Positions 1 through 18,467 of a stretch of 64,000 nt of DNA are shown here, piece by piece. Every line of letters begins with the position of its first letter. Position 1 is the stretch's first letter. Location: contig OZ252098.1 of NCBI GenBank assembly GCA_965248355.1, positions 4,480,001 through 4,544,000 of the forward strand, given 5' to 3'. Position numbers and translations under genes: made by a program. The notes beneath the pieces were generated by a model. The model did not search any database. It worked only from the letters and a program-made list of their open reading frames with translations, and was not told the origin of the DNA. Origin of the DNA: Candidatus Latescibacterota bacterium. Lineage in GTDB: Bacteria > Latescibacterota > UBA2968 > UBA8231.

Positions 1-1
1 C

Positions 2-109
2 CAGCTCGGCGAGGCCGGCGTCGACGCCGTGCTGGTGGGCGAGTCCCTCATGCGGGCCGGGGACCCGGGCGCCGCCGTGCGCGACCTCCTCGGCGGCGAG
101 GAGAGCTGA
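2..109 (+). CDS. trpC: Indole-3-glycerol phosphate synthase, C-terminal fragment (runs off window start)
   Basis: Manual translation QLGEAGVDAVLVGESLMRAGDPGAAVRDLLGGEES*; DAVLVGESLMR is the TrpC C-terminal motif; directly upstream of trpS. Confidence 0.88.
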   Translation, partial: QLGEAGVDAVLVGESLMRAGDPGAAVRDLLGGEES

Positions 110-110
110 C

Positions 111-1094
111 GTGGCGCCGCGCGTGTTCTCCGGCATCCAGCCGTCGGGCGAGCCCCACCTGGGCAACTACATCGGCGCCATCCGCAACTGGGTGAGCGAC
201 CAGGAGCGCTACGACAACTTCTTCTGCATCGTCGACGAGCACGCCATCACCGTGCCCTTCGACCCGGCCGAGCTGCGGGCCAAGGTGCGGGAGCTGGTGG
301 GGGTGCTGGTGGCCTGCGGCATCGACCCGGAGCGCAGCGTCCTCTTCGTCCAGTCCCACGTGGCCGAGCACACGGAGCTGGCCTGGCTGCTGACCTGCAA
401 CACCCCCATGGGCTGGCTCGAGCGCATGACCCAGTTCAAGGACAAGGCCGGCAGCCGGCGCGAGCGGGTCGGCGCCGGTCTGTTCACCTACCCCGTGCTC
501 ATGGCGGCCGACATCCTCCTCTACCAGACCTCGGTGGTGCCCGTGGGCGACGACCAGAAGCAGCACGTGGAGCTGGCCCGCGACATCGCCGGCCGCTTCA
601 ACAATCTCTACGGCGAGGTCTTCACCCTGCCGGAGCCGCTGATCCGCGAGGTCGGCGCGCGCGTCATGGGGCTCGACGACCCCACGAAGAAGATGTCCAA
701 GTCGGTGGAGGGACAGCATCACGCCATCGGGCTGCTCCACGAGCCCGACCTGATCCGGCGCAGGATCGGCCGCGCCGTCACCGACTCGCTGCGGGAGATC
801 CGCTTCGACGAGGACCGCCCCGGCGTAAACAACCTGCTGACCATCCATCACGCCCTCTCAGGGCAGGACAAGGCCGGGATCGAGGCCCACTTCGAGGGCA
901 AGGGCTACGGCGACCTGAAGAAGGAGGTGGCCGACGTCGTGGTGGAGTCCCTGGCCCCGGTGCGGCGGCGCTACGCCGAGATCACCGCCGATCCGGCGAC
1001 CGTCGACGGGATCCTCGAGGCGGGGCGCGAGCGGGCGCGGCCGGTGGCCGAGGCCACCATGGAAGACGTGCGCCGGGCCATGGGACTGCGGTGA
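111..1094 (+). CDS. trpS: Tryptophan--tRNA ligase
   Basis: FSGIQPSGEPHLGNYIGA (HIGH-like), YPVLMAADIL, VPVGDDQKQH, KMSKS. Confidence 0.97.
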   Translation: MAPRVFSGIQPSGEPHLGNYIGAIRNWVSDQERYDNFFCIVDEHAITVPFDPAELRAKVRELVGVLVACGIDPERSVLFVQSHVAEHTELAWLLTCNTPMGWLERMTQFKDKAGSRRERVGAGLFTYPVLMAADILLYQTSVVPVGDDQKQHVELARDIAGRFNNLYGEVFTLPEPLIREVGARVMGLDDPTKKMSKSVEGQHHAIGLLHEPDLIRRRIGRAVTDSLREIRFDEDRPGVNNLLTIHHALSGQDKAGIEAHFEGKGYGDLKKEVADVVVESLAPVRRRYAEITADPATVDGILEAGRERARPVAEATMEDVRRAMGLR

Positions 1095-1098
1095 GCCC

Positions 1099-1383
1099 AT
1101 GGCCGACGGGAAGGACATCGATGACTGGCGGGCCCGCATCGACGAGGTGGACGAGAGGATCGTCGACCTGATCAACGAGAGACTGGGCTACGCCATCGAG
1201 ATCGGCCGGCTCAAGCGGGCCAGCGGCCGGCAGGTGCGCGACCGGGCCCGGGAGCGGGCCCTCATCGAGCGGCTCCAGGCCTTCAACCGGGGTCCCCTGA
1301 GCGAGGAGGCCATCGCCGACCTCTTCGCCCGAATCATGGCCGAGGCCCGCACCCTCGAAGGCGGGGGGGACGGGGCGCCGTGA
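1099..1383 (+). CDS. Chorismate mutase, AroQ/type II, monofunctional
   Basis: RARIDEVDERIVDLINER...IGRLK...VRDRARE pattern; operon context. Confidence 0.9.
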   Translation: MADGKDIDDWRARIDEVDERIVDLINERLGYAIEIGRLKRASGRQVRDRARERALIERLQAFNRGPLSEEAIADLFARIMAEARTLEGGGDGAP

Positions 1384-2501
1384 GCACCGCCAACCGGTCC
1401 TCCCGGTTCGGGCGAATCGGGATCGTCGGCGTCGGACTGATCGGCGGCTCCTTCGGCCTGGCCCTGCGGCGCACGGGATACGCCGGTTCGATCGTCGGCA
1501 TCAGCCGGCCCGAGACGGTGGAGAAGGCCGTCTCCCTCGGGGCCGTGGACGAGGGCTGGGACTACGAGGAAGTGGACCGGGGGCTGGCCGGGGCGGACCT
1601 CGTCTTCCTGTGCTCGCCCATCCGCCACATCATCGACTTCCTGCCGCGGGTCATGGCGGCGGTGCCGGCCGGGGCCCTGGTCACCGACGCGGGCAGCACC
1701 AAGCGCAGCATCGTAGACGCCGCTGCGGCCACGGGGCGGTTCGACGCCTGGTTCCTCGGCGGCCATCCCATGGCCGGCTCGGAGAAGTCGGGGGTGATGG
1801 CGGCCGATCCGTTCCTGTTCCAGAACGCGATCCACATCCTCGTGCCCGACGCCGCCGTGCCGGAAGATCTGCACCAGGGCTTGCGCGATCTGCTCCGCGG
1901 CCTCGGGGCCCGCGTCCTCGAGCTGTCGGCGGAGGACCACGACCTGGTGGTGGCCGCCATCAGCCACCTGCCCCAGCTGCTGGCCACCTCCCTCGTGGAG
2001 ATGGTGGGCCTTCTGGACGAGGAGCGGGAGGGCCTGCTCCTGACCCTGGCGGCCGGCGGGTTCCGCGACCTGACGAGAATCGCCTCCAGCCGCTTCGAGC
2101 CGGTCTGGAACGACATCTGTGCCACCAACCCGGACCGAATCCGCGAGATGGTCGACCGTTTCCAGGCGCGCCTGGCCCAGGTGCGCGACAAGGTGGGCGG
2201 CAGCGCTCTGGAGGCCGACTTCGAGTACGCCAACCGGATCCGCGACGGCATCCCGAGGGACGCCAAGGGGTTCATCCACCGGCTGGCGGAGGTGCTCGTG
2301 GTCTGCGAGGACCGGCCGGGGGTGATCGCCGAGATCGCCGCCGTCCTGGCGGCGGAGGACGTGAACATCAACGACATCGAGGTGATGAAGGTGCGCGAAG
2401 GAGAGGGGGGGACCCTGCGGCTGGGCTTCGATGGCGACGGGGTGGCCGACCACGCGGTGGAGGTGCTCGGGGCCGTGGGCTACCGGGCGCGGCGGCCCTG
2501 A
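1380..2501 (+). CDS. tyrA: Prephenate/arogenate dehydrogenase with C-terminal ACT domain
   Basis: GVGLIGGS Rossmann motif, DAGSTK, GGHPMAGSE, HD...ISHLPQ, GFRDLTRIA; ACT motif EDRPGVIAEI. Confidence 0.93.
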   Translation: MSTANRSSRFGRIGIVGVGLIGGSFGLALRRTGYAGSIVGISRPETVEKAVSLGAVDEGWDYEEVDRGLAGADLVFLCSPIRHIIDFLPRVMAAVPAGALVTDAGSTKRSIVDAAAATGRFDAWFLGGHPMAGSEKSGVMAADPFLFQNAIHILVPDAAVPEDLHQGLRDLLRGLGARVLELSAEDHDLVVAAISHLPQLLATSLVEMVGLLDEEREGLLLTLAAGGFRDLTRIASSRFEPVWNDICATNPDRIREMVDRFQARLAQVRDKVGGSALEADFEYANRIRDGIPRDAKGFIHRLAEVLVVCEDRPGVIAEIAAVLAAEDVNINDIEVMKVREGEGGTLRLGFDGDGVADHAVEVLGAVGYRARRP

Positions 2502-2504
2502 CCG

Positions 2505-3806
2505 ATGGTGCGGACCGTTTTCAGGGCCACTCGCCTCCGGGGCGAGGTCCGGGTGCCCGGCGAACGCGACCGGGCCATCCAGGCCCTGTGGATGGCGGCC
2601 GTGTCGGAGGGCCCCAGCCGGATCGGCGGCGTGCCCCCCGGGGCGGTGGGAACCGTGACCGCCCTGCGGCGGCTCGGCGTCGGGGTGAACGACGACAACG
2701 GAGGCGGTCTCCGCGTCGACGGCCGCGGTCCGGGAGGGCTCGAGCCCCCCGGGGACATCCTCGATCTGGAGGGCTCGGAGGAGGCGGTGCTGCCGGCTCT
2801 GGCGATCCTGGCCCGGCAGCCCTTTCCCAGCCGCGTGCGGGTCCCCGGGCCGGTGCGGGACCGGGCGGCTCAGCTCCTGCGGCTGCTGGCGCGCACCGGC
2901 TCCGTGGGCACGGAAGAGGCCGAGGGCGTCCTTCGCCTGGAGGGGGCCGCGGGCCCCGGCGGGGCCGACCACGAGGAGACGGACCTGCCGGCGCCGGTGA
3001 AGCTCGGCCTGCTGACGGCTGGCCTCTTCGCCGAGGCTCCCACCGTGGTGCGCGAGCCGGCCTCCTGCCGCGACCGCGTCGAGGCGCCGTGGAGGGAGCG
3101 CGGCGTTCCGGTGGAGAGCGGCCGCCGGGGCGATCCGCCGGCGCGCACCCTGACCCTGTCGCCGGGGTCGGCGCCGAAGGCCCTGGATGTGGATGTCCCC
3201 GGAGACCTGGCGGGGGCCTTGCCGGTGGTGGTCGCGGCCCTGGCCGTGCGCCGCTCGGAGGTCGCCGTGCGCCGGGTCATGGTGCGCCCGGGGAACCGCC
3301 TCTTCGTCGACCTGGTGCGCCAGATCGGCGGCGAGCTGGAGATCGTCGAGGCCGGGGACGGCAGCGTCGATCTGCTGGTCCGAGGCTCGGCGAAGCTCCA
3401 GGCGACGCGGGTGGCCGACCGCCGGGCCCGGAGGCTGCTGGAGCACGTGGCCCTGCTGGCGGTGCTGGCCACCCAGACCGAGGGCGAGTTCATCATCCGG
3501 GACATCGAGCCGCTGCGCCAGGGCGAGTACGACTTCGTCGACCACCTCGTGGACCAGTTGCGGCGGGTCGAGGCCAAGGTCGGCGAGTATCACGAGGGCC
3601 TGGTGATCGAGGGCGGCCGGCCGCTGAAGGGGGAGCGCATCGACGGCCGGGGTCACCCGGGTCTGGTGCAGGCCTTCGCCGTGGCCGGCCTCGTCGCCCA
3701 CGGCCAGATGGAGATCGCCGGCGCGGACTGCGTCGAAGCCTCCTTCCCGGGGTTCTTCGATCTCCTCGACGCGTTGCAGGCCCCCAGGGCCAGGGAGAAT
3801 GCGTGA
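2505..3806 (+). CDS. aroA: EPSP synthase (AroA)-fold protein with degenerate active site
   Basis: Collinear with class II AroA (LRGEVRVPG, VREP..CRD, DVPGD, LATQTEG, SFPGFF) but the KS..HR, NSGTT.R, SAQ.K, DE.P, KE.DR and DHR motifs are substituted. Confidence 0.85.
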   Translation: MVRTVFRATRLRGEVRVPGERDRAIQALWMAAVSEGPSRIGGVPPGAVGTVTALRRLGVGVNDDNGGGLRVDGRGPGGLEPPGDILDLEGSEEAVLPALAILARQPFPSRVRVPGPVRDRAAQLLRLLARTGSVGTEEAEGVLRLEGAAGPGGADHEETDLPAPVKLGLLTAGLFAEAPTVVREPASCRDRVEAPWRERGVPVESGRRGDPPARTLTLSPGSAPKALDVDVPGDLAGALPVVVAALAVRRSEVAVRRVMVRPGNRLFVDLVRQIGGELEIVEAGDGSVDLLVRGSAKLQATRVADRRARRLLEHVALLAVLATQTEGEFIIRDIEPLRQGEYDFVDHLVDQLRRVEAKVGEYHEGLVIEGGRPLKGERIDGRGHPGLVQAFAVAGLVAHGQMEIAGADCVEASFPGFFDLLDALQAPRARENA

Positions 3807-3946
3807 TGAGAATTCTGTTGCGGCTGCTGGTGCTGGCCGCCGTGGTCTTCGGCGGCGGCGTGCTGCTGATCAAGGTGCTCTACGGGGCGAGCTGGGGCGA
3901 GTCTCTCGAGATCGCCGACCAGTTCCTGGAGGACGTCCTCGGGTGA
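3806..3946 (+). CDS. Small single-pass membrane protein (46 aa)
   Basis: MRILLRLLVLAAVVFGGGVLLIKVLYGASWGESLEIADQFLEDVLG; TGATG overlap with aroA-like stop and GTGA overlap with aroE start. Confidence 0.7.
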   Translation: MRILLRLLVLAAVVFGGGVLLIKVLYGASWGESLEIADQFLEDVLG

Positions 3947-4776
3947 TCACCGGCCGGACCGGGGTCCTCGGCGTCATCGGCCATCCGGTGACGCACTCGG
4001 GGTCCCCGGCGATGCACAACGCGGCCCTGGCGGCCACGGGTCTGGACTACGTGTACGTCGCCTTCCCGGTGCCGCCGGAGAGCGCCGCCCACGTGGGCGG
4101 CGCCATGCGCCACTTCGGCATCCGCGGCCTCAACGTCACCGTGCCCCACAAGCAGGCGGTCCTGTCCTGCCTCGACGAGGTGGCCCCGGAGGCGCGGGCC
4201 ATCGGCGCCGTGAACACCATCGACCACCGCGGCGGCCGCCTGGTGGGGCACAACACCGACGCCCACGGCGTGCTCGCCAGCCTGCGCGAGGGAGGGTTGG
4301 AGCGGCTGCCGCCGAAGGTCGCCCTTCTGGGCGCCGGCGGCGCGGCCCAGGCCGTCCTCTACGCCCTGCTCTCCCGCGGCGAGGTGGAGGAGGTGTCGCT
4401 GCTCAACCGCACCCCCTCCCGGGCCGAGAGCCTGGCCGAGTCCCTGGACGGCGGCGGCCGGGTGCGGGTGGCGCCCCTGAAGGAGAGCGCCTGCGTGCGC
4501 GAGGCGGGGCTGGTCATCAACGCCACCTCCATCGGCATGGAGCCCGCGGCCGGCGTCTCGCCGCTGGGCGACGGCCGCGTCCTGCACGACGGCATGGTGG
4601 TGCTCGACATCGTCTACAAGCCGCTGCGCACGCGCCTTCTGGAGCAGGCCCAGGCCGCCGGCGCCCGCGCTCTGGACGGGTTGGGGATGCTGGTGCACCA
4701 GGGCGCCCGGTCCTTCGAGATCTGGACCGGGGTGCGGCCGCCGGTGGACGTCATGCGGCGGGCCCTCGAGGCGTGA
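3943..4776 (+). CDS. aroE: Shikimate dehydrogenase
   Basis: GHPVTHSGSPAMHN, GLNVTVPHKQ, GAVNT, GHNTD, GAGGAA, NATSIGM, GLGMLVHQG; GTG start at 3943 inferred from overlap. Confidence 0.95.
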   Translation: MITGRTGVLGVIGHPVTHSGSPAMHNAALAATGLDYVYVAFPVPPESAAHVGGAMRHFGIRGLNVTVPHKQAVLSCLDEVAPEARAIGAVNTIDHRGGRLVGHNTDAHGVLASLREGGLERLPPKVALLGAGGAAQAVLYALLSRGEVEEVSLLNRTPSRAESLAESLDGGGRVRVAPLKESACVREAGLVINATSIGMEPAAGVSPLGDGRVLHDGMVVLDIVYKPLRTRLLEQAQAAGARALDGLGMLVHQGARSFEIWTGVRPPVDVMRRALEA

Positions 4777-6497
4777 CGGAGGAGGCGCGGGTGAATCCAT
4801 TCGTGGAGGAGATCGTCGAGAGGACGGCCGCCGCCGGCCTGGACCCGTCCATCGTGCGCGGGCTGCTCGCCGTCCCGCCGGAGGAGAGCATGGGCGACTA
4901 CGCCCTGCCCTGCTTTACCCTGGCCAGGGAACTGCGCCGGAACCCGGCCCAGATCGCCGCCGACGTGGCCGAACGCATCCTCCCCGGGATCGGCCCCGGG
5001 GGCCGCATCGCCGCCGTCGCCGCCGCCGGGCCGTACGTCAACTTCACCCTCGACCGGCCCGCCTTCATCGGCCACACCCTCGACGAGATCGCCGCCCTCG
5101 GCCCGACCTACGGCTCCCGCGGACAGGGCGCCGGCCGGAGCCTGGCCCTCGACTTCTCCTCGCCGAACCTGGCCCGTCCGTTCTCCATCGCCCACCTGCG
5201 CTCCACCGCCATCGGCCACGCCATCTACCGCATCCACGAGTTCCTGGGCTGGCGCTGCGTCGGCATCAACTACTACGGCGACTACGGCGCCAACTTCGGC
5301 CAGCTCCTGGCGGCGTACGCCGCCTGGGGGGACGAGGAGCGCATCCGCGCCGATCCGATCCGGGAGCTGGTGGGCCTCTACGTGCGCTTCCACCGGGAGG
5401 CCGAGGCCGACCCGGGGCTGAGGGACCGGGCCCGGGACTGCCTGCGGGCCCTGGCCTCCGGCGACGAGGAGATGGTCCGGCTCTGGCGGTGGTTCTCCGA
5501 CGAGGGCCGCAAGGAGGCGGAGCGTATCTACGGCATCCTGGGCGTGCGCTTCGACGAGGTCCTGGGGGAGAGCCACTTCGCCGGCCAGCTCGACGAGGTG
5601 GCCGCCTTCTTCGAGGAACGGGGACTGGCGGAGGAGAGCGAGGGCGCCCTCATCGTGCCCCTCGAGGACCAGGCGGCGCCGCTCATGCTGCGCACCTCCA
5701 ACGGCACCAGCACCTACCACAGCCGGGACGTGGCGGCCCTGCTCTACCGGCAGCGCCAGCACGCCTTCGACAAGATGGTCTACGTCACCGACATGCGGCA
5801 GCGCCTGCACTTCGAGCAGCTCTTCGGCGCCCTGCGCCGGGCCGGCGTCGACTGGATCGACCGCTGCCAGCACGCGCCCTTCGGGCTCATGTCCTTCCGC
5901 GGCCGGGCCCTGGCCACGCGCAAGGGCGAGGTGATCATTCTCGAGGACGTCCTCGACCGGGCCATCGCCCTCACCGAGGGCATCATCGCCGAGAAGAACC
6001 CGGGTCTGGCCGGCGCCGCGGAGGTGGCGCGGCAGGTGGGGATCAGCGCCGTGGTCTTCGCCGACGTCAACAACCGCCGCACCCGGGACATCCACTTCTC
6101 CCTCGAGGAGGTCCTCAACTTCGACGGCGAGACCGGGCCGTACGTGCAGTACACCCACGCCCGCTACTGCAGCATCCTGCGGCGCCACGGCCGGCCCGTG
6201 GACCCGGCCGCCGACACCTCCCGCCTGGGGGAGGCGGGGGAGATGCGGCTGGCGCGCAAGCTCGCCGAGTTTCCCGATGTCGTCGACTCGGCGGCGGCGG
6301 AGAACGAGCCGTCGTACGCGGCCGGCTACCTGCTCGAGCTGGCCGCGGCGGCCAACAAGCTCTACAACGAGGTGCCCGTTCTGGTGGGCGGCGACGAGGG
6401 CCTGACGGCGGCGCGCGTGCGCCTCGCCGACGGGGCCCGCGGGGTGCTGCGCACGGGGCTCGACCTGCTGGGCATGAGCGCCCCCGAGGAGATGTAG
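4773..6497 (+). CDS. argS: Arginine--tRNA ligase
   Basis: GDYALPCF, GPYVNF, DFSSPN..HLRST.IG, GDYG, GETGPYVQYTHAR, C-terminal PEEM. Confidence 0.95.
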   Translation: MTEEARVNPFVEEIVERTAAAGLDPSIVRGLLAVPPEESMGDYALPCFTLARELRRNPAQIAADVAERILPGIGPGGRIAAVAAAGPYVNFTLDRPAFIGHTLDEIAALGPTYGSRGQGAGRSLALDFSSPNLARPFSIAHLRSTAIGHAIYRIHEFLGWRCVGINYYGDYGANFGQLLAAYAAWGDEERIRADPIRELVGLYVRFHREAEADPGLRDRARDCLRALASGDEEMVRLWRWFSDEGRKEAERIYGILGVRFDEVLGESHFAGQLDEVAAFFEERGLAEESEGALIVPLEDQAAPLMLRTSNGTSTYHSRDVAALLYRQRQHAFDKMVYVTDMRQRLHFEQLFGALRRAGVDWIDRCQHAPFGLMSFRGRALATRKGEVIILEDVLDRAIALTEGIIAEKNPGLAGAAEVARQVGISAVVFADVNNRRTRDIHFSLEEVLNFDGETGPYVQYTHARYCSILRRHGRPVDPAADTSRLGEAGEMRLARKLAEFPDVVDSAAAENEPSYAAGYLLELAAAANKLYNEVPVLVGGDEGLTAARVRLADGARGVLRTGLDLLGMSAPEEM

Positions 6498-6499
6498 CC

Positions 6500-7036
6500 G
6501 TGGGCCGGCCGGCGCCGATCTTCCTCACCGGGTTCATGGCCACGGGCAAGAGCCGCATCGGCCGCCTGCTGGCGGCCCGTCTCGACCGCCCCTTCTACGA
6601 CACCGACGAGATGGTGGAGCGGCGGGCCGGGAGGACGGTCTCCGAGATCTTCTCCGCCTGCGGCGAGGAGGGCTTCCGCGAGCTGGAGTCGGCCTGCGTC
6701 CTCGAGGCCGCCCGCCAGGCCGGGGCCGTCGTCGCCCTCGGCGGGGGGGCCATCACGCGAACAGAGAACCGGGAGGCGATCCGCGCCGCCGGCGCCGTCC
6801 TGGTCTGCGTCGAGGCCGACGTGGAGGCCATTGTCCGGCGCCTCTCCCGGCGCGAGGACCGGCCCCTGCTGGCCGGCCTGACGCCCCATCAGCGGCGCCG
6901 CAAGGTGGAGGAGATGCTGGCCGAGCGGGCTCCCTATTACGCCGCCGCCCACATCACCGTTCGCACCTCGGAGGAGACCTCGGCCGAGGAGATGGCGGGC
7001 GGCCTGGCCGAGCGGCTCGGGGAGGGCCGCCCATGA
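6500..7036 (+). CDS. aroK: Shikimate kinase
   Basis: IFLTGFMATGKSRIG P-loop, DTD, GEEGFRELE, ALGGG, RPLL, ERAPYY. Confidence 0.94.
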   Translation: MGRPAPIFLTGFMATGKSRIGRLLAARLDRPFYDTDEMVERRAGRTVSEIFSACGEEGFRELESACVLEAARQAGAVVALGGGAITRTENREAIRAAGAVLVCVEADVEAIVRRLSRREDRPLLAGLTPHQRRRKVEEMLAERAPYYAAAHITVRTSEETSAEEMAGGLAERLGEGRP

Positions 7037-8136
7037 AGGAGATCACCGTCCGGCTGCCCGGGGGGAGGGACTACGACATCGTCGTCGGTCACGGCTCCCT
7101 CGAGGCCCTCGGGGAGCGCTGCCGGAGCCTGAATCTCGGCGGATCCTGCGCCCTCATCGGCGACGCGGCCCTGGCGGACACCTTTGTGGAGCAGGCCCGC
7201 CGCAGCCTGTGCGGCGCCGGCTTCGAGGTCCTGGTGCTCGGCTACGCCGCCGGCGAGGCGGGCAAGAACCTGGCCTCGGTGGAGGAGCTGGCGGGCGGCA
7301 TGTCCGGCGCCGGCCTCGACCGCGGCGCCTGGGTGGCCGCCGTGGGCGGGGGCGTCGTGGGCGACCTGGCCGGCTTCGTGGCCGCCAGCTACCTGCGCGG
7401 CGTCGACGTGGTCCAGGTGCCGACGACCATCGTCTCCCAGGTCGACGCCAGCATCGGCGGCAAGACGGCCGTCAACCTCCCCTCCGGCAAGAACCTGGTG
7501 GGCGCCTTCCACCAGCCGCGGCTGGTCCTGGCCGACACCGGGACCCTGCGCACCCTGCCCCGGGCGGAGGTCGTGGCCGGCCTGGCGGAGGTCGTCAAGC
7601 ACGGCGTCATCCGCGACGAGGAGCTCTTCGCCCTTCTCGAGCGGCGCCTGGAGGAGGTCGTGGAGATGCGCGTCGGCGCCGCGGAGCTGGACGCCCTGAT
7701 CGCCCGCAACGCGCGGATCAAGGGCGAGGTGGTCGCCGCCGACGAGCGCGAGGGCGGCCTGCGGGCCATCCTCAACTACGGACACACCCTGGGCCACGCC
7801 ATCGAGTCGGCCAGCGGCTACCGTTTCCGCCACGGCGAGGCCGTCCTGCTCGGCATGGCCGCCGCCTCCGAGATCGCGGCGCGCCTCGGGCTGTGGGAGA
7901 GCGCCGGGGCGCGCGCCCGCCACGACGCCCTCGTGGAGCGGCTGGGCGTGCCCTCCGGAGTCGGCGGGATCGACGCAGGCCGTATCTTTGAACGCACCCG
8001 GTCCGACAAGAAGCGGGCCGCCGGCCGCAATCGCTTCGTCCTGGCCCGCGGCATCGGCCGCGTGGAGGTCGTGGACGGCGTCGACGACGCCGTCGTCCGC
8101 GAAGCCGTATCCTCTCTACAGCACAGGTACCCATGA
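7033..8136 (+). CDS. aroB: 3-dehydroquinate synthase
   Basis: GGGVVGDLAGFVAASYLRG, VPTT, DASIGGKT, GKNLVGAFHQP, LNYGHTLGHAIE, HGEAV. Confidence 0.97.
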   Translation: MKEITVRLPGGRDYDIVVGHGSLEALGERCRSLNLGGSCALIGDAALADTFVEQARRSLCGAGFEVLVLGYAAGEAGKNLASVEELAGGMSGAGLDRGAWVAAVGGGVVGDLAGFVAASYLRGVDVVQVPTTIVSQVDASIGGKTAVNLPSGKNLVGAFHQPRLVLADTGTLRTLPRAEVVAGLAEVVKHGVIRDEELFALLERRLEEVVEMRVGAAELDALIARNARIKGEVVAADEREGGLRAILNYGHTLGHAIESASGYRFRHGEAVLLGMAAASEIAARLGLWESAGARARHDALVERLGVPSGVGGIDAGRIFERTRSDKKRAAGRNRFVLARGIGRVEVVDGVDDAVVREAVSSLQHRYP

Positions 8137-9497
8137 GCGACCCCCGCGTCCACCTGATCAGCCTCGGCTGCCCCAAGAACACGGTCGACTCCGAGCGCAT
8201 GCTCGGCCTGCTGCGCGGCAACGACTACGCCCTCACCGGCGATCCGCGGGAAGCGGACGTGGTCATCGTCAATACCTGCGGTTTCATCGAGCCGGCCAAG
8301 GAGGAGTCCATCGACACGATCCTGGCCGCCGCCCGGCTCAAGGACTCCGGCCGCTGCAAGGGCGTCGTGGTCACCGGCTGCCTGTCGACCCGGTACGAGG
8401 AGGAGCTGAAGACGGAGCTGGCCGAGGCCGACGTGGTCCTCACCCTGCGCGAGGAGCGGGACATCGTGCGCCACGTGGACCGCCTCCTCGGCAAGGGCCG
8501 CGGCCACTATGTCGATCGCCTGCCGCGCACGAGCCTGACGCCGCGCCACTGGGCCTACCTGCGCATCTCCGACGGCTGCGATCACCAATGCGCGTTCTGC
8601 GCCATCCCCGCCATCCGGGGCCGCCACGTGAGCGAGCCCGTGGAGGTCCTGGTGGCCGAGGCCGAGCGTCTGGCGGCGGCGGGCGTGCGCGAGCTGGTCC
8701 TGGTGGCGCAGGACTCGGTGCGCTACGGCGCCGATCTCTACGGCCGGCCGCAACTGGTGCCGCTGCTGGAGAAGCTGGCCGAGGTGGAAGGGATCGAGTG
8801 GCTGCGGCTGATGTACACCTACCCGGCCTTCTGGACCAAGGAGATGCTCGACTTCTACGGCGGCCACCCGAAGATGTGCCGCTACGTCGACATGCCCCTG
8901 CAGCACATCGCCGACCCCGTGCTGCGGCGCATGAAGCGGGCCACGACGCGCCGCAAGACCCTCGACCTGCTGGACCGCCTGCGCCGGCGCCTGCCCGGCG
9001 TCGGCCTGCGCTCCTCCTTCATCGTCGGCTTTCCCGGCGAGACGGAGGCGCAGTTCGAGGAGCTGCTGGCCTTCATCGAGACGACCCGCTTCGACAACGC
9101 CACCGGCTTCCTCTACTCCGACGAGGAGGGCACCCCCGCCTTCGAGCTGGACGGCAAGCTTCCCGCGCACGTGGCGGCCGAGCGCTACCGCCGCCTGAGC
9201 CAGCTCCAGGAGCGCATCTCGGCGGCGATCAACCACGACATGGTCGGCTCGCGGCGGACCGTGCTGATCGACGCGGTCTCGGAGGGGCGGATCACCGGCC
9301 GTCTCGAGCGCGACGCCCCGGAGATCGACGGGCAGGTCGTCCTCGAGGCGCCCCCGGAGGCGGGGCTGACCCACATCGAGGGCGCGGCGCCGGCCGCCCC
9401 GGCCGCGGACGGATGGGCCGGCCGGTTCGCCGAGGTGGAGATCACCGGCGCCCACGCCTACGAGCTGGAGGCGCGGCTGGCGGGAGAGGTCTGGTGA
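8133..9497 (+). CDS. rimO: Ribosomal protein S12 methylthiotransferase (radical SAM)
   Basis: SLGCPKNTVDSE, NTCGFIE, CDHQCAFC (CxxxCxxC), IVGFPGET, APEIDG. Confidence 0.95.
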   Translation: MSDPRVHLISLGCPKNTVDSERMLGLLRGNDYALTGDPREADVVIVNTCGFIEPAKEESIDTILAAARLKDSGRCKGVVVTGCLSTRYEEELKTELAEADVVLTLREERDIVRHVDRLLGKGRGHYVDRLPRTSLTPRHWAYLRISDGCDHQCAFCAIPAIRGRHVSEPVEVLVAEAERLAAAGVRELVLVAQDSVRYGADLYGRPQLVPLLEKLAEVEGIEWLRLMYTYPAFWTKEMLDFYGGHPKMCRYVDMPLQHIADPVLRRMKRATTRRKTLDLLDRLRRRLPGVGLRSSFIVGFPGETEAQFEELLAFIETTRFDNATGFLYSDEEGTPAFELDGKLPAHVAAERYRRLSQLQERISAAINHDMVGSRRTVLIDAVSEGRITGRLERDAPEIDGQVVLEAPPEAGLTHIEGAAPAAPAADGWAGRFAEVEITGAHAYELEARLAGEVW

Positions 9498-9841
9498 TGC
9501 GAGCTCTCGCGGAACGGAGGAAGCGCCGTCCGGCGGGCATCGATCTCGGCGAAGAGGCCCTGACCATCCACTGGCAGGACGGCCGCGAGAGCCGTTACGA
9601 GCTGCAGGCCCTGCGCCTGCAGTGCCCCTGCGCGATCTGCCGGCAGAAGCGCGGCGAGCCCCACGGACCGCAGCTGGTCGGGGGGGTGGAACTGCCCATC
9701 GTCACCACCGAAGAGCTCACACCCACCTCCGAGGCCAGGGGCTTCGACCCCGTGGGCCGCTACGGCATCCGCATCCACTGGGCCGACGGCCACGAGGACG
9801 GCATCTACACCTTCGAGATGCTGCGCGGCCTCGACGGCTGA
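9497..9841 (+). CDS. DUF971 / gamma-butyrobetaine hydroxylase-like N-terminal domain protein
   Basis: W.DG, LRLQCPCAIC, VGRYGIRIHWADGH..GIYTF. Confidence 0.85.
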   Translation: MRALAERRKRRPAGIDLGEEALTIHWQDGRESRYELQALRLQCPCAICRQKRGEPHGPQLVGGVELPIVTTEELTPTSEARGFDPVGRYGIRIHWADGHEDGIYTFEMLRGLDG

Positions 9842-11919
9842 TCAGGCCCCTGCGCCGCCGGCTTCGGCAGCGGCGCCCGCCCGATCCACAACTCCAGCAG
9901 CAGCAGCACCAGCGCCAGGACCAGGCATTCCCGCCACAGCTCGCGCCCGTGGCGCAGGGCCAGGACGCGCTCCCCCACCGCGGTCTCGTCGTCGAGGAAG
10001 TGGAGGCTGGCGCCCGGCAGCCGCCGCCGGATCTCCTGCTCCGGCCAGGCCGAGAGGTCGGACTCGGCGGCGTCGACGTTGACGGCGAACTCGTCGCGCA
10101 CGCCGCCGTCGGGCCCGACCAGGCGCCAGATGCCCGCCTCCTCCAGCGGGGGCAGGGCCCAGCGCAGGTCCCCGAGAGAGGTCTCCGCCCGGATGAAGCG
10201 CCGGCGGCCGGAGGGCGCCTGCGCCTGCATGCGGTCGTCGACCCGGGAACCGGGAAGCCGCCGCCAGGCCCGGTCCCCCACCGTGTAGTCGGCGCCCCCC
10301 GCCGGCTGGGCGAGGTAGCGGCACAACCGGTGCAGGAGCGGCACGAAGGAGCCGCTCCGGGGCCAGTCGCTCCAGGCCAGGTCCAGCGGCACCGCCCACA
10401 GCAGGGCCCGCCCGTCGCCGGGACGGCCCTCGACCAGGGCGGGCTTGCCGTCGTCGAAGCGGGCGAGCACGGACAACTGGCGCCGGGTGACCAGGTCGAA
10501 GCGGGCCCGGAACCGGGGCCGGTCCCCGGACTCCGCCACCAGGCCGGCGAAGAGCCGGGCGTCGGCGCGGCTCGAGTCGAGGGCGACGTAGGCCTCCTCG
10601 CCCGGCCGCCCGGCGATCCCGGCCAGGGTGGCCGGCACGAGCCCCGGCAGCCAGTCCCGGTTGAGGCGGGCCAGGTCGGCCTGCGGGCCGGGCAGCAGCA
10701 GCAGTCCGCCGCCGGCCTCGACGAAGCGCCGCACCTGCCTGGCCAGCCTCGGGGGCGGGTCCTCCAGGTGGCACAGGACCAGCACGTCGACGCCGGCCAG
10801 GGCTTCCTCGTCGAGCTCTGGGAAGGTGACGGATTCCACCTGCAGGGCGGCGTCGCCGGTGGCCGCGGCGGCCAGCGCCCGGCGGGCGTAGTAGGTGTCG
10901 CCGCGGTCCGGCCCCGCCAGCAGCACGGAGATGCGGTCCGGCACGTGGAGGGTGAAGTGGCGGCGGTTGTCGAGGGGCAGGTCATCGGCCTCGACCTCCA
11001 CGAAGCCGGTGAGCCGGCCGCTGCGCCGCGGGGCGACCTCGAATTCCACCGCCGCCGTGCCCGACGCCGGCACCTGGACCCGCCGCCGCTGCACGCGCTC
11101 TCCATCGAGGAAGAGGTCCACGGAAAGGCGGGCCTCCCCGCCCCCGGACTGGCCCACCCGGGCGCCGATGTTCAGGCGCGTGCCGGGCGCGGCCAGCCAG
11201 CCGGCGGCGCCGACCTCGGCCACGTAGAGGTTGCGCCGTCTCCCGCCGGAGGGGGAGATGACGAACAGGGACTGCGGGTTCGTGCCGGAGAGGCCGGGGC
11301 GCATGTCCTCCCAGCCGGGCCGGGCGCGGTCCGTGAACAGGTAGATCTCGCCCCGCGCCGCCGGCGTCCGGGCCAGCTGCCGGCCCGCCGCCCGCAGGGC
11401 CCGCGACACGTCGGTGCCGGCCTCCCCCGGGGCGCGCGCGGCCAGACGCTCCCGCAGAAGGCGGACGGCCGAGGCGCGGTCGGCGGTGTCGGGGCGCGCG
11501 GCGAAGGGGATCACGCTGACCCGGTGGCGGCCGTCCTCGTACAGGGACAGGACCTCGTCGGCGCGCAGGCGCAGGCGGTCGAAGGCGCGTCCTCCGGGCG
11601 GGCTGTAGCGGGTGCTGAAGGAGTGGTCGAGGAGGAGCACGGCCGCGGCCGGCCGCGAACCTCCGAAGAGGCCGGCGCCCTCCTGCAGGGCGGGGCGGGC
11701 GCAGGCCAGGGCCAGGCAGGCGAAGGCGAGCATGCGCAGCAGCAGGACCAGCCACTGGCGCAGGCGCAGGCCGCGCATGTGGCTGAGGTGGACCTGCCGC
11801 AGGAAGCCGACGTTGCTGAAGGGGACGACCCGGGGCCGCCCGCGGTGCAGGAGGTGGACGGCGAGGGGGATGAGGGCCGCCGCCAGCCCGGCCAGGGCCA
11901 GGGGGTTGAGGAACTGCAA
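9805..11919 (-). CDS. BatA-domain / vWA membrane protein
   Basis: N-terminal FLNP...IPLAVHLL...FSNVGFL...LLLRML...ARP (BatA), LDHSFS MIDAS-like motif, C-terminal AVN...ESDL and ELW TM segment. Confidence 0.85.
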   Translation of the reverse strand: MQFLNPLALAGLAAALIPLAVHLLHRGRPRVVPFSNVGFLRQVHLSHMRGLRLRQWLVLLLRMLAFACLALACARPALQEGAGLFGGSRPAAAVLLLDHSFSTRYSPPGGRAFDRLRLRADEVLSLYEDGRHRVSVIPFAARPDTADRASAVRLLRERLAARAPGEAGTDVSRALRAAGRQLARTPAARGEIYLFTDRARPGWEDMRPGLSGTNPQSLFVISPSGGRRRNLYVAEVGAAGWLAAPGTRLNIGARVGQSGGGEARLSVDLFLDGERVQRRRVQVPASGTAAVEFEVAPRRSGRLTGFVEVEADDLPLDNRRHFTLHVPDRISVLLAGPDRGDTYYARRALAAAATGDAALQVESVTFPELDEEALAGVDVLVLCHLEDPPPRLARQVRRFVEAGGGLLLLPGPQADLARLNRDWLPGLVPATLAGIAGRPGEEAYVALDSSRADARLFAGLVAESGDRPRFRARFDLVTRRQLSVLARFDDGKPALVEGRPGDGRALLWAVPLDLAWSDWPRSGSFVPLLHRLCRYLAQPAGGADYTVGDRAWRRLPGSRVDDRMQAQAPSGRRRFIRAETSLGDLRWALPPLEEAGIWRLVGPDGGVRDEFAVNVDAAESDLSAWPEQEIRRRLPGASLHFLDDETAVGERVLALRHGRELWRECLVLALVLLLLELWIGRAPLPKPAAQGPDQPSRPRSISKV

Positions 11920-12632: not shown

Positions 12633-13958
12633 ATGACGAGACCGCTGCAGGCCACCCCGGCCCCGCCTCCCCGGACCGTTCTGTTCGTCGCCTACCACTA
12701 CCCGCCCATGCGGTCGCCGGGGGTGGAGCGCTCGGCCCGGTTCACCCGCTACCTGCCGGAGTTCGGCTACCGGCCCCGGGTGGTGGGCACGGGCGCCTTC
12801 GGGACTTCGGCGGACGGGGTGATCCGCGCCTGGGAACCCCTGGCCCTCTACCGGCGCCTCTTCAACCCCGCCGCCCGCAAGAAAGGTCCCGCGGCGACCC
12901 GCACCCGCACCCGGGGCCCCCTGGCCGGCCTCTCGGCGCGGGCGCGGCGCTCGCTGCTGGTTCCCGACGGACAGATCACCTGGGTCCCGGGGGCCGCTCT
13001 CGCGGCGCTGCGCTGGGTGCGGCGGCACGGGGCCGACCTGATCTACACGACCAGCCCGCCGGCCTCGGCGCACCTGCTCGGCGGGCTGCTGAAGGCGCAG
13101 ACGGGGTTGCCGTGGATCGCCGACTTCCGCGACGCCTGGCTCTACGACCCCCTGGACCCGGTCCTGCTGGAGAGGCCCTTCCGGCGCGAGCTGGAGCGCC
13201 GTCTCGAGGAACGGGTGCTCACCGAGGCCGATGCCGTGATCACGGCGACGCGGACCACGGCCGAGGACTTCGTGTGCCGCTACCCGGCGGCGGCCCCCAA
13301 GGTGCGCGTCATCACCAACGGTTTCGACCCGGCCGACGAGGAGCCGCCGCCAGACGAGGCCGGCCCGCAGATCGCGCCTGTCCCCGGACGCCTGATCCTG
13401 GTGCACACGGGCAGCTTCGCCTACAGCCATCCACGCCGCTCCATCGCGCCCCTGGAGCGGGCCCTGCGCCGGCTGGTGGACACCGAGCCGGTGTGGTGCG
13501 ACCGCCTCGAGCTGATCCTGGTGGGAGAGCTGTCGCCTGCCGAGCAGGCCGCCGTGGCGGCCCTGGCCGACCTCGGCGTGGTGCGCCTCACCGGGGCCGT
13601 CGACCGCGCCGCGGCCCTGGCCTTCCAGCGGCGCGCCGACGTGCTGCTCCTCGTGGACCACCCGAGGCCCTGGCCCGCCTCCAACGCCCCGGGCAAGCTC
13701 TTCGAGTACCTCGCCGCCGGCCAGCCGATCCTCGCCCTGTGCGGCGAGGGGGAGGTGCGGCGCACGGTGGACGAGCTGGGGGCCGGCCTGTGCGCTCCCC
13801 CGGACGACACGGACGGCATCGAGCAGGCCCTGCGGCGGCTCTGGTCCGGCTGGCGGGAGGGGTCCCTGCCGAGGGCGGGCGCGGGCCTGGAGCGGTTCCA
13901 CCGGCGCGAGCTGACACGCCAGCTGGCGGCGTGCTTCGACGAGGTCCTCGGCGCTTGA
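12633..13958 (+). CDS. Glycosyltransferase family 4
   Basis: VAYHYPP, YTTSPP, WIADFRD.W, VITNGFD, PGKLFEYLAAG.PI. Confidence 0.88.
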   Translation: MTRPLQATPAPPPRTVLFVAYHYPPMRSPGVERSARFTRYLPEFGYRPRVVGTGAFGTSADGVIRAWEPLALYRRLFNPAARKKGPAATRTRTRGPLAGLSARARRSLLVPDGQITWVPGAALAALRWVRRHGADLIYTTSPPASAHLLGGLLKAQTGLPWIADFRDAWLYDPLDPVLLERPFRRELERRLEERVLTEADAVITATRTTAEDFVCRYPAAAPKVRVITNGFDPADEEPPPDEAGPQIAPVPGRLILVHTGSFAYSHPRRSIAPLERALRRLVDTEPVWCDRLELILVGELSPAEQAAVAALADLGVVRLTGAVDRAAALAFQRRADVLLLVDHPRPWPASNAPGKLFEYLAAGQPILALCGEGEVRRTVDELGAGLCAPPDDTDGIEQALRRLWSGWREGSLPRAGAGLERFHRRELTRQLAACFDEVLGA

Positions 13959-17339: not shown

Positions 17340-18467
17340 TGTCGCGTCCGACAAATGAGTTGTAAAAACAGAGTCAAGGCCTTATCTTCAGGCCATGGCC
17401 CGCCCGGTGTCCCGCCTTGAGTTGACCGCGTCCGAGCGACAGGAGTTGGAGCGTCGCGTCAGGGCCCCCTCCGCGTCCCAGCGCGACAGCCTGCGCGCGG
17501 CCATCGTCCTGCGCCGGGCCGAAGGGATCAAGCAGGTGCAGGTGGCCGCCGAGTTGGGCGCCAGTGTGGCGTGTGTGAACAAGTGGTCGCAACGCTTTGA
17601 TCGCGAGGGTTTGGCGGGACTGAACGACGCCAAGGGCCGGGGCCGGCCGGCGAGCTTGCCGGCGGACAAGGTCGAGCAGGTCCTCACCGCGGTCACGCAG
17701 CCGCCGAAGCCGCGCACGCGCTGGAGCGTGCGCTCGATGGGGAAGGCCAACGACATCAAGCCCCATTTGACCAAGACCTTCAAGGTCTCCACGGACCCGC
17801 ACTTCGAGGAAAAATTCTGGGACGTGATCGGGCTCTACCTGGATCCCCCCGAGCGCGCGCTGGTGCTGTGCTGTGACGAGAAGAGCCAGTGCCAGGCGCT
17901 GGAACGGACCCAGCCGGGCTTGCCGCTGGGGATCGGCGACATCCGCACCCGGACCCACGATTACAAGCGCCACGGTACGATCACCTTGTTCGCCGCGCTC
18001 AACTACCTCGACGGCAAGCTCATCGCGCGTCTGGAGGCGCGTCATACCCACGTCGAATGGCTCCGCTTTCTCAAGCAGATCGACCGCGAGACGCCCAAGA
18101 ACCTGTCGCTGCACCTGATCGTGGACAACGCCGGCCCCCACAAGGAGGAGAGCGTGCAGCATTGGTTGTCTCGGCATCGGCGCTTCCATGTCCATTTCAT
18201 CCCCACCAGTTCCTCCTGGATGAACTTGGTCGAACGGTTCTTCGGCGAGCTGACGCAGGATGTGATTCGGGACGGCAGCTTTGCCAGCGTCGGGGAGTTG
18301 GTGCGCGACATCGAAGCCTACTTGGCGCAGCGGAACTTGGCCCCCAAACCCTACCGCTGGAAGGCCGACGGCGAGACCATCCTGCGCAAGATCCAGCGCG
18401 CTCGGGAGACGGTGGCGGCGACATCGGACAGCCCTTGTTGATTCTTCTTAATTCTCGGACGGGACAC
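17339..18467 (+). mobile_element. IS630-family insertion sequence
   Basis: Imperfect terminal inverted repeats GTGTCGCGTCCGACAAATGAG (left) and reverse complement of the right end GTGTCCCGTCCGAGAATTAAG; TA duplicated at 17337-17338 and 18468-18469 within CTAG. Confidence 0.92.
17395..18441 (+). CDS. IS630 family DDE transposase
   Basis: N-terminal HTH, DVIGLYLDPP, CDEKSQCQAL, HDYKRHGT, IVDN, SSWMNLVERFF. Confidence 0.95.
   Translation: MARPVSRLELTASERQELERRVRAPSASQRDSLRAAIVLRRAEGIKQVQVAAELGASVACVNKWSQRFDREGLAGLNDAKGRGRPASLPADKVEQVLTAVTQPPKPRTRWSVRSMGKANDIKPHLTKTFKVSTDPHFEEKFWDVIGLYLDPPERALVLCCDEKSQCQALERTQPGLPLGIGDIRTRTHDYKRHGTITLFAALNYLDGKLIARLEARHTHVEWLRFLKQIDRETPKNLSLHLIVDNAGPHKEESVQHWLSRHRRFHVHFIPTSSSWMNLVERFFGELTQDVIRDGSFASVGELVRDIEAYLAQRNLAPKPYRWKADGETILRKIQRARETVAATSDSPC

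Follow-up and report, generated by a model that had tools for sequence, protein, structure and literature searches.

The gene at positions 2505-3806 of the window, the whole stretch of 64,000 nucleotides of Candidatus Latescibacterota DNA that was analysed, encodes a homologue of class II EPSP synthase (AroA) that has lost almost all of its active-site ligands. Our preferred explanation, to which we give a probability of roughly 0.6, is that it is the native aroA of its lineage, stripped of ligand residues while a distant aroA provides the chemistry, and kept for an older binding job outside the shikimate pathway. We hold it about as probable that, in Latescibacterota and Zixibacteria, class II AroA has moonlighted since ancient times, the outer sheet of its C-terminal domain having a second cellular job apart from aromatic biosynthesis. 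Taken as a whole, that reading also implies that the job would be important enough for the gene to outlive replacement of the enzyme, loss of the pathway and a cut to a 215-residue domain, and that dedicated non-catalytic proteins would have arisen repeatedly.

The 433-aa open reading frame on the forward strand contains no internal stops, and its GC3 is 0.93, compared with 0.91-0.97 in the neighbouring genes. It stands in the order trpS, chorismate mutase, tyrA-ACT, the gene itself, a 46-aa ORF, aroE, argS, aroK, aroB and rimO (Table 1). The protein matches PF00275 with 115.9 bits (Pfam gathering threshold 22.8) over positions 5-416 of the 417 in the profile. Its score of 136.9 against TIGR01356, the equivalog profile of class II AroA, is below the cut-off of 287.25, and the MurA profiles give 25.4 against a cut-off of 297 (PRK09369) and 22.3 against 392.7 (TIGR01072), indicating that it is not a MurA. 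The best structural-sequence alignment, over residues 7-426, is to the class II AroA 3rmt (E 3e-45). An AlphaFold2 model built from 82 sequences has a pLDDT of 94.7 and a pTM of 0.91, and its top Foldseek matches are class II AroA structures (E 2e-34 to 4egr; TM 0.82 to 3roi_B), so that the two-domain enolpyruvyl-transferase fold is predicted to be retained. An earlier note, made from the DNA sequence alone, had described an intact ORF between tyrA and aroE that can be aligned over its full length to class II AroA and had proposed profile and structural comparisons; both the AroA and MurA profiles and the predicted fold agree with its description.

Table 1. Features at and around the eroded aroA-like gene, in window coordinates.
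Feature	Position	Strand	Basis or remark
Chorismate mutase type II	1099..1383	+	Profile match
tyrA, prephenate dehydrogenase with ACT domain	1380..2501	+	Profile match
Eroded class II AroA homologue (putative pseudo-EPSP synthase), 433 aa	2505..3806	+	PF00275, TIGR01356, AlphaFold2/Foldseek, ligand positions
N-terminal strand (residues 1-19), belonging to the discontinuous C-terminal domain; present in half-length relatives	2505..2561	+	Joins the post-hinge helix in short forms
N-terminal domain, about residues 20-228; evolves faster, deleted in frame in two related lineages	2562..3188	+	dN/dS, AU test
C-terminal domain, about residues 229-433; stronger selection	3189..3803	+	dN/dS, conservation, natural 219-aa form
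Second repeat of the C-terminal domain, residues 298-369, with R302, R332, K358, G360 and V367	3396..3611	+	Conservation ranking; DSSP strands of the model
46-aa hydrophobic peptide	3806..3946	+	Conserved; a GTG start at 3803 gives 47 aa
aroE, shikimate dehydrogenase	3943..4776	+	Profile match
argS, arginyl-tRNA synthetase	4773..6497	+	Profile match
aroK (6500-7036) and aroB (7033-8136)	6500..8136	+	Profile match

No promoter-like site was found in window positions 1-10000, and there was no Rfam match in the 20 kb ending at window position 4999. RNA contigs of one study, from a library that may hold DNA, overlap the gene in places (2740-3007, 2944-3268 and 3343-3805, among others). Among 8000 candidates for longer, fused forms (827-2360 aa) there was one weak match, and none of the best 120 of 290 homologues, all near the length of the window protein, exceeds 494 aa. 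Elsewhere in the window, a DDE_3 and helix-turn-helix transposase (17395-18441) lies within a glycosyltransferase/aminotransferase cluster that starts at 12633.

To follow the active site, 19 ligand or near-ligand positions were placed via the motifs of L077, an intact AroA belonging to a related family. We label them by what we take to be the E. coli residues (K22, R27, R100, R124, Q171, D313, K340, E341, R344, H385, R386 and others). The window protein retains three of the 19, R200, D242 and E341, or four in a second alignment, the difference arising from the gapped R124 motif, which shifts between the two; at the core ligand and catalytic positions it retains 2 of 13. By comparison, 106 canonical class II proteins retain 17-19 of the 19 (a set defined as retaining at least 16), and the motifs are present in 80/80 other class II loci, except for cut-off ends and one eroded Zixibacteria protein. 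At the aligned positions PGDKSISHR has become PGERDRAIQ, GNSGTT.R EGSEEAVL, KRPM DRAA, SAQ.KS PAPVKL, RDHTE RDRVE, PGDISS PGDLAG, IDE.P LEHVA, KE.DR GEYDF and DHR HPG. All of these changes had been read by eye in the earlier note, as had the near-complete loss of ligands. By its defining residues, as aligned here, the protein falls outside the AroA enzyme family, and it is very probably a pseudo-EPSP synthase devoid of enzyme activity. The available part of a review of pseudoenzymes defines them by missing catalytic motifs in a kept fold (PMC10211241); in the window protein the motifs are missing, the fold is predicted to be kept and the protein is under selection.

The genome has three matches to PF00275: the window gene, a separate gene for MurA and a 436-aa protein encoded at G000:C1:1299478-1300788. 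The latter scores 338.5 bits against TIGR01356, above the cut-off of 287.25, and has 13/13 core residues; its identity is 20% with the window protein and 27% with the intact native type. The genome also encodes DAHP synthase, type II dehydroquinase and chorismate synthase, and with this second aroA the shikimate pathway therefore looks complete without the window gene. The second aroA, a gene of the kind that the earlier note had predicted to exist elsewhere in the genome, likely supplies the EPSP synthase chemistry, judging from its residues. Separate aroA copies, 27 in total, were checked in 26 genomes (22 in the window's class and four in a further family, f10); all have 11-13 of the 13 core residues, and they belong to at least three unrelated types. 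In one genome (G014; 90% complete, 150 contigs) PF00275 had two matches and a separate aroA was not identified. In genus g17 the class I-like aroA that serves as the replacement (L013-L024) has H at the K340 position, and that of G010, G022 and G030 (L011, L012 and L073) has Q there; both otherwise have 12/13 core residues.

A search of 168 genomes of the phylum, with loci of 65 class genomes aligned (32 of family f1, 21 of f2, two of f3 and 10 of f4), placed the eroded gene in four families of one Latescibacterota class and in a fifth family, f10. The copy is eroded in all 65 class loci and in each of the 11 f10 genomes (of 13) that were read, and wherever the contig is long enough it fills the slot between tyrA and aroE. 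Families f1-f4 share the order tyrA, eroded gene, 46-aa ORF, aroE. In f5, f6, f7, f9, f11 and f12 the class II aroA is intact (17-19 of 19 positions). In f7 and f9 it occupies the same operon slot, so the window gene is the native aroA of its lineage. No native-type copy was matched in f8, f13 and f14. Eroded proteins of different families share 25-45% identity with their ORFs intact, and no internal stops were seen in the 150 best-listed matches from class genomes. The canonical motifs are absent in all of the best 120 of 290 homologues, whose source names indicate Candidatus Latescibacterota, with some records under Gemmatimonadetes. None of the 132 near-full-length family members has R100, R124, K340 or H385, and the best retains 8 of 19.

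Several variants were seen alongside this pattern. In f6 the sole class II aroA that was read (L080 and L081) has T for Q171 and K for R100, with 17/19 positions, and may show the onset of erosion or simply a variant that is tolerated. An insert rich in arginine, about 20 residues long and just before the hinge, occurs in AroA of f5, f6, f10 and Zixibacteria (L079, L080, L081, L086-L095, L138, P0143, P0144, P0166 and P0207) and is absent from the window's class; it persists in strongly eroded f10 copies. Among further partly eroded class II AroA proteins, P0266 lacks the G360 signature described below, and P0217, P0143 and P0141 have it.

The eroded gene is under purifying selection. We calculated dN/dS by NG86 with neighbouring genes as the control, as high GC may compress dS. 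Against six congeners the window gene gives 0.27-0.33, compared with 0.13-0.46 for six neighbouring genes; the value is not near 1, and the relatives likewise lack the normal motifs. The constraint differs between the domains, with 0.33-0.44 for the N-terminal and 0.20-0.26 for the C-terminal domain in the same comparison, and 0.31 and 0.13 among four close congeners. In f4 the values are 0.36 (N-terminal) and 0.22 (C-terminal), the gene at 0.28 against 0.13-0.15 for its neighbours; in genus g14 they are 0.33 and 0.32, the gene at 0.33 against 0.09-0.18. In these two groups the gene is about twice as free as its neighbours, and the constraint is thus relaxed, though still far from neutral. The other computable pairs lie at 0.08-0.39, including two pathway-less Zixibacteria pairs at 0.10 and 0.24, and half-length forms have a median of 0.165 (55 pairs) against 0.12-0.15 for neighbours. 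Broken frames and dN/dS near 1, the marks of a pseudogene, were not found among relatives apart from one out-of-frame case in genome G077. Together with the intact ORFs across the class and the confidently predicted AroA fold, the low dN/dS favours the suggestion in the earlier note that this is a pseudoenzyme and not a product of decay.

Natural shortening of the gene points to the half of the protein that matters. Half-length proteins of 214-227 aa occur in genus g17 of f2 (11 read) and in f3 (two read), and the other f2 genera have the full length. In the short forms the first strand is fused in frame to the post-hinge helix, at two similar PG[DN]P motifs. A single origin is rejected by the AU test (p-AU 0.0002), and on these sequences the N-terminal domain has been deleted in frame at least twice independently. 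A natural 219-aa form is predicted to fold as the C-terminal domain alone (pLDDT 80 for a model from 10 sequences; Z 26.1 and rmsd 2.5 over 211 residues against 5buf), and the half-length form falls in generic EPSP synthase clusters of the ESM Atlas. The active site of EPSP synthase sits between the two domains, so the half-length forms cannot be EPSP synthases. As the N-terminal domain was lost at least twice under selection, the selected function would lie in the C-terminal domain. A third deletion, in G077 (L105:7874-8430), is out of frame and runs from the first strand to the middle of the C-terminal domain; about 160 codons are left in frame, and it may represent decay or an assembly error.

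We ranked all 433 columns by their conservation in six eroded groups minus that in ordinary class II AroA. Positions 360, 302 and 358 come first to third. Position 360 is G or A in 64/64 proteins of f1-f4, 8/8 of f10, 6/6 intact proteins of f5, f6, f7 and f9, and 95/95 native copies of Zixibacteria (55/55 and a further 40/40), compared with 0/3 in f11 and f12 and 1/76 in ordinary class II proteins, which mostly have E there. Intact enzymes of both phyla already carry the signature, suggesting that the second job predates the loss of catalysis. Together with 299, 330, 332 and 367, the three top positions lie on four strands of the second C-terminal repeat (DSSP of the model). This repeat is the best conserved one in all eroded groups except f10; in ordinary AroA, too, its conservation is somewhat above that of repeat 1. 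Positions 298, 303, 331, 359 and 368, which alternate with the signature positions, are hydrophobic in all AroA. By this strand alternation, as distinct from coordinates, the R302/K358/G360 signature likely faces outward. A small hydrophobic centre (G360, V330 and V367) with a basic ring (299, 302, 332 and 358) may form a candidate binding site. The ring varies: it is gone in f10, where G360 remains, and position 299 of the window protein is Q in place of K or R. The signature could also be a lineage trait of two related phyla and not a functional site.

Partly eroded class II proteins among the distant matches pointed to Zixibacteria, where intact and eroded copies can be compared. Joining Latescibacterota and Zixibacteria against ordinary class II proteins has an SH-aLRT of 85 in a quick tree with long branches, and the Zixibacteria gene is likely the orthologue of the window gene. 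The search matched 109 of 121 Zixibacteria genomes, and aroC was found in 89, in assemblies that are incomplete. In 70 genomes with aroC the gene is the sole aroA; among the 58 of these that were read, 54 have 19/19 positions, three have 18 and one has 17. In contrast, in all 17 genomes with aroC and a second aroA the native-type gene keeps only 1-12 of 19; the second copy itself was read in G188 (13/13 core residues) and was assigned from a split match pattern in the other 16. The 20 genomes that have the gene without aroC keep 0-17 of 19, 17 of them 14 or fewer, and the remaining three, with 16-17, overlap the lowest sole copy (17). In these 20 genomes aroB and tyrA were not found, by searches that matched 5/5 (aroB) and 4/5 (tyrA) controls; their loci run from argS and the native-type gene to MATE, Gate-domain or other genes, and aroE-aroK-aroB-aroQ is absent. 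What is new here is that erosion in Zixibacteria appears to track a second aroA or the absence of the pathway. On an ArgS tree of 46 of the genomes there are four changes and three independent contrasts, all concordant (sign test p 0.25). The gene is dispensable in some lineages: 12 of the 121 genomes have only MurA-level matches and two more only a different class II aroA. Neighbour clustering in Zixibacteria showed no further gene lost together with the native-type gene. Because these relatives keep the gene where the rest of the pathway was not found, a second, non-enzymatic job is likely.

Two neighbours of the gene were followed as candidate partners. The 46-aa peptide occurs in 125 of the 131 other class genomes, and one query found it in 135 of 168 genomes of the phylum. 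It has a conserved C-terminal SW..E..I motif. By eye it was also seen in five f10 loci, with a cysteine-rich tail in some; it has no Pfam or NCBIfam match, and in the ESM Atlas it forms its own, hypothetical cluster. Its presence tracks the signature within Latescibacterota. We rejected it as the partner, since it is located elsewhere in f6, stands without an aroA-like gene in f13 and was not found in 41 Zixibacteria. In G071, where the aroA-like gene is missing, an RNase P RNA gene (L117:8188-8582) lies directly upstream of the 46-aa peptide and aroE. Arginyl-tRNA synthetase is the only neighbour common to the loci of both phyla. In several f1 genera its gene has been replaced in place by another ArgRS type, with 29-35% identity to that of the window (L042, L044, L056, L114, L116, L122, L124, L132, L133, L135 and L136). 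The usual signature motif of ArgRS is HIGH-like; in the window ArgRS this loop reads SIAH, which is shared across f1. ArgS type as a marker of the eroded gene was rejected, as it does not track it.

Other explanations must be weighed against a binding job outside the pathway. The protein could instead serve the aromatic pathway by scaffolding, regulating or pairing with TyrA, AroE, the 46-aa peptide or the working AroA. The conserved gene order in f1-f4, the existence of TyrA-AroA fusions (PRK14806) and, in the available text, the fused and N-terminally deleted AroA remnant beside a transferred aroA in P. syringae (PMC1173090) are consistent with this. We consider it unlikely, however, because the gene order simply reflects the ancestral aroA slot, the working AroA belongs to unrelated types from one lineage to another, and the peptide was not found in the 41 Zixibacteria and occurs without the gene in f13. 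Moreover, the surface persists in the 20 Zixibacteria in which searches for aroB, aroC and tyrA gave no match. Such genomes keep gene and surface where these operon neighbours were not found, which disfavours the partnership with TyrA, the peptide or a working AroA that the earlier note had offered. Its other suggestion, a new activity, for which the cleft would have been remodelled, fits the full length and fold kept in most members. It is hard to reconcile with relatives that have lost a whole domain of a two-domain active site, half of the cleft, in two lineages still under selection; in addition, no new invariant polar set is seen and the former ligand positions differ freely between lineages. 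We regard a new activity as highly improbable.

The nature of the partner can be questioned in the same way. The conserved positions are mostly K or R (272, 299, 302, 332 and 358), and tRNA synthetase genes lie nearby, so the basic surface could bind RNA or DNA and not protein, like other proteins of the same fold. In particular, the half-length form matches RNA 3'-terminal phosphate cyclase and Rcl1 (4CLQ, 3KGD and 4O89; Z 11.6-13.2), in which the same barrel domain occurs once; of these, Rcl1 has no cyclase activity and binds partners. These proteins are only 8-10% identical and belong to a different branch of the fold, they match much less well than EPSP synthases do (Z 21-26), and sharing a fold is no evidence of function. 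The sheet has no conserved aromatic residue (362 is Y, F, M, L or I) and f10 lacks the basic ring, and nucleic-acid binding is in our view quite unlikely. A protein partner encoded nearby could be arginyl-tRNA synthetase, whose gene is directly upstream in nearly all Zixibacteria loci, also those without aro genes, and in f1-f4 and f9 lies two to four genes downstream; in g14, with a replaced argS type, constraint on the C-terminal domain is weaker (dN/dS 0.32, three pairs). But the replaced argS is the only one in 5/5 f1 genomes tested and the signature stays, genomes without the gene or the signature have the same ArgS type, and the adjacency follows from deletion of intervening genes, making this partner very unlikely. 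Equally doubtful is that the protein has no job of its own and is a slowly decaying relic whose reading frame is preserved through operon coupling and selection against misfolding. The dN/dS above that of neighbours in several groups (f4 and g14), the loss of the gene in some lineages and the out-of-frame deletion in G077 point that way. Intact ORFs across families only 25-45% identical, domain-specific selection centred on the second repeat, invariant lineage-specific surface positions and half-length forms at a dN/dS of 0.16 all argue against it.

Known systems offer partial parallels. With class II EPSP synthases (AroA, EC 2.5.1.19; 3RMT from Bacillus halodurans; 3TR1, 3SLH and 4EGR from Coxiella burnetii; 5BUF from Acinetobacter baumannii) the window protein shares sequence family, length, two-domain fold and operon slot. 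It differs from them in its 3-4 of 19 ligand positions, its score below the TIGR01356 cut-off and its R302/K358/G360 signature, as 75/76 ordinary sequences lack G or A at 360. The nearest precedent is a remnant in P. syringae, where, according to the available part of the report, the native aroA, fused as TyrA-AroF (EPSP synthase), lost its function after a foreign aroA was acquired (Song et al., 2005; PMC1173090). About 200 N-terminal residues of AroF are deleted there, although one passage speaks of a C-terminal truncation, and the authors wondered about a regulatory use (PMC1173090). That remnant is fused to TyrA and described from one species, with no selection evidence in the portion of the text available (PMC1173090), whereas the window family is a free-standing gene found across a class and in a second phylum, also without TyrA. 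The nearest mechanism is that of MurA in Pseudomonas aeruginosa, an enzyme of the enolpyruvyl-transferase fold with a binding-based second function: it activates LpxC, and this survives loss of catalysis (Hummels et al., 2023; PMC9995270, in the part available). In nature MurA stays a working enzyme, its interface involves G58 and E406, and AroA is unmentioned in the available part of that article (PMC9995270).

A moonlighting origin of the window protein would involve several steps. A bifunctional AroA would have combined catalysis with a job of its C-terminal surface. Release from catalysis, through a replacement aroA or loss of the pathway, would have allowed the active-site cleft to erode, and in some lineages the N-terminal domain would then have been lost. 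The candidate binding partner is probably a protein that docks on the C-terminal β-sheet, and the job is presumably the same in both phyla.

EPSP synthase, the target of glyphosate, is a textbook example of an enzyme with a single purpose. The literature that we searched, comprising main texts and a minority of subscription journals, describes no stand-alone EPSP synthase pseudoenzyme or second function, and a term search of the available text of the pseudoenzyme review found no mention of EPSP or shikimate (PMC10211241). The graded natural series of intact, partly eroded, fully eroded, half-length and pathway-less forms points to three residues and one surface, and a hunt for the second job could use the 219-aa protein with a point-mutant control. 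Many eroded copies are labelled '3-phosphoshikimate 1-carboxyvinyltransferase' in their source annotation. Such labels would give false calls of a shikimate pathway and of glyphosate sensitivity in these uncultured phyla.
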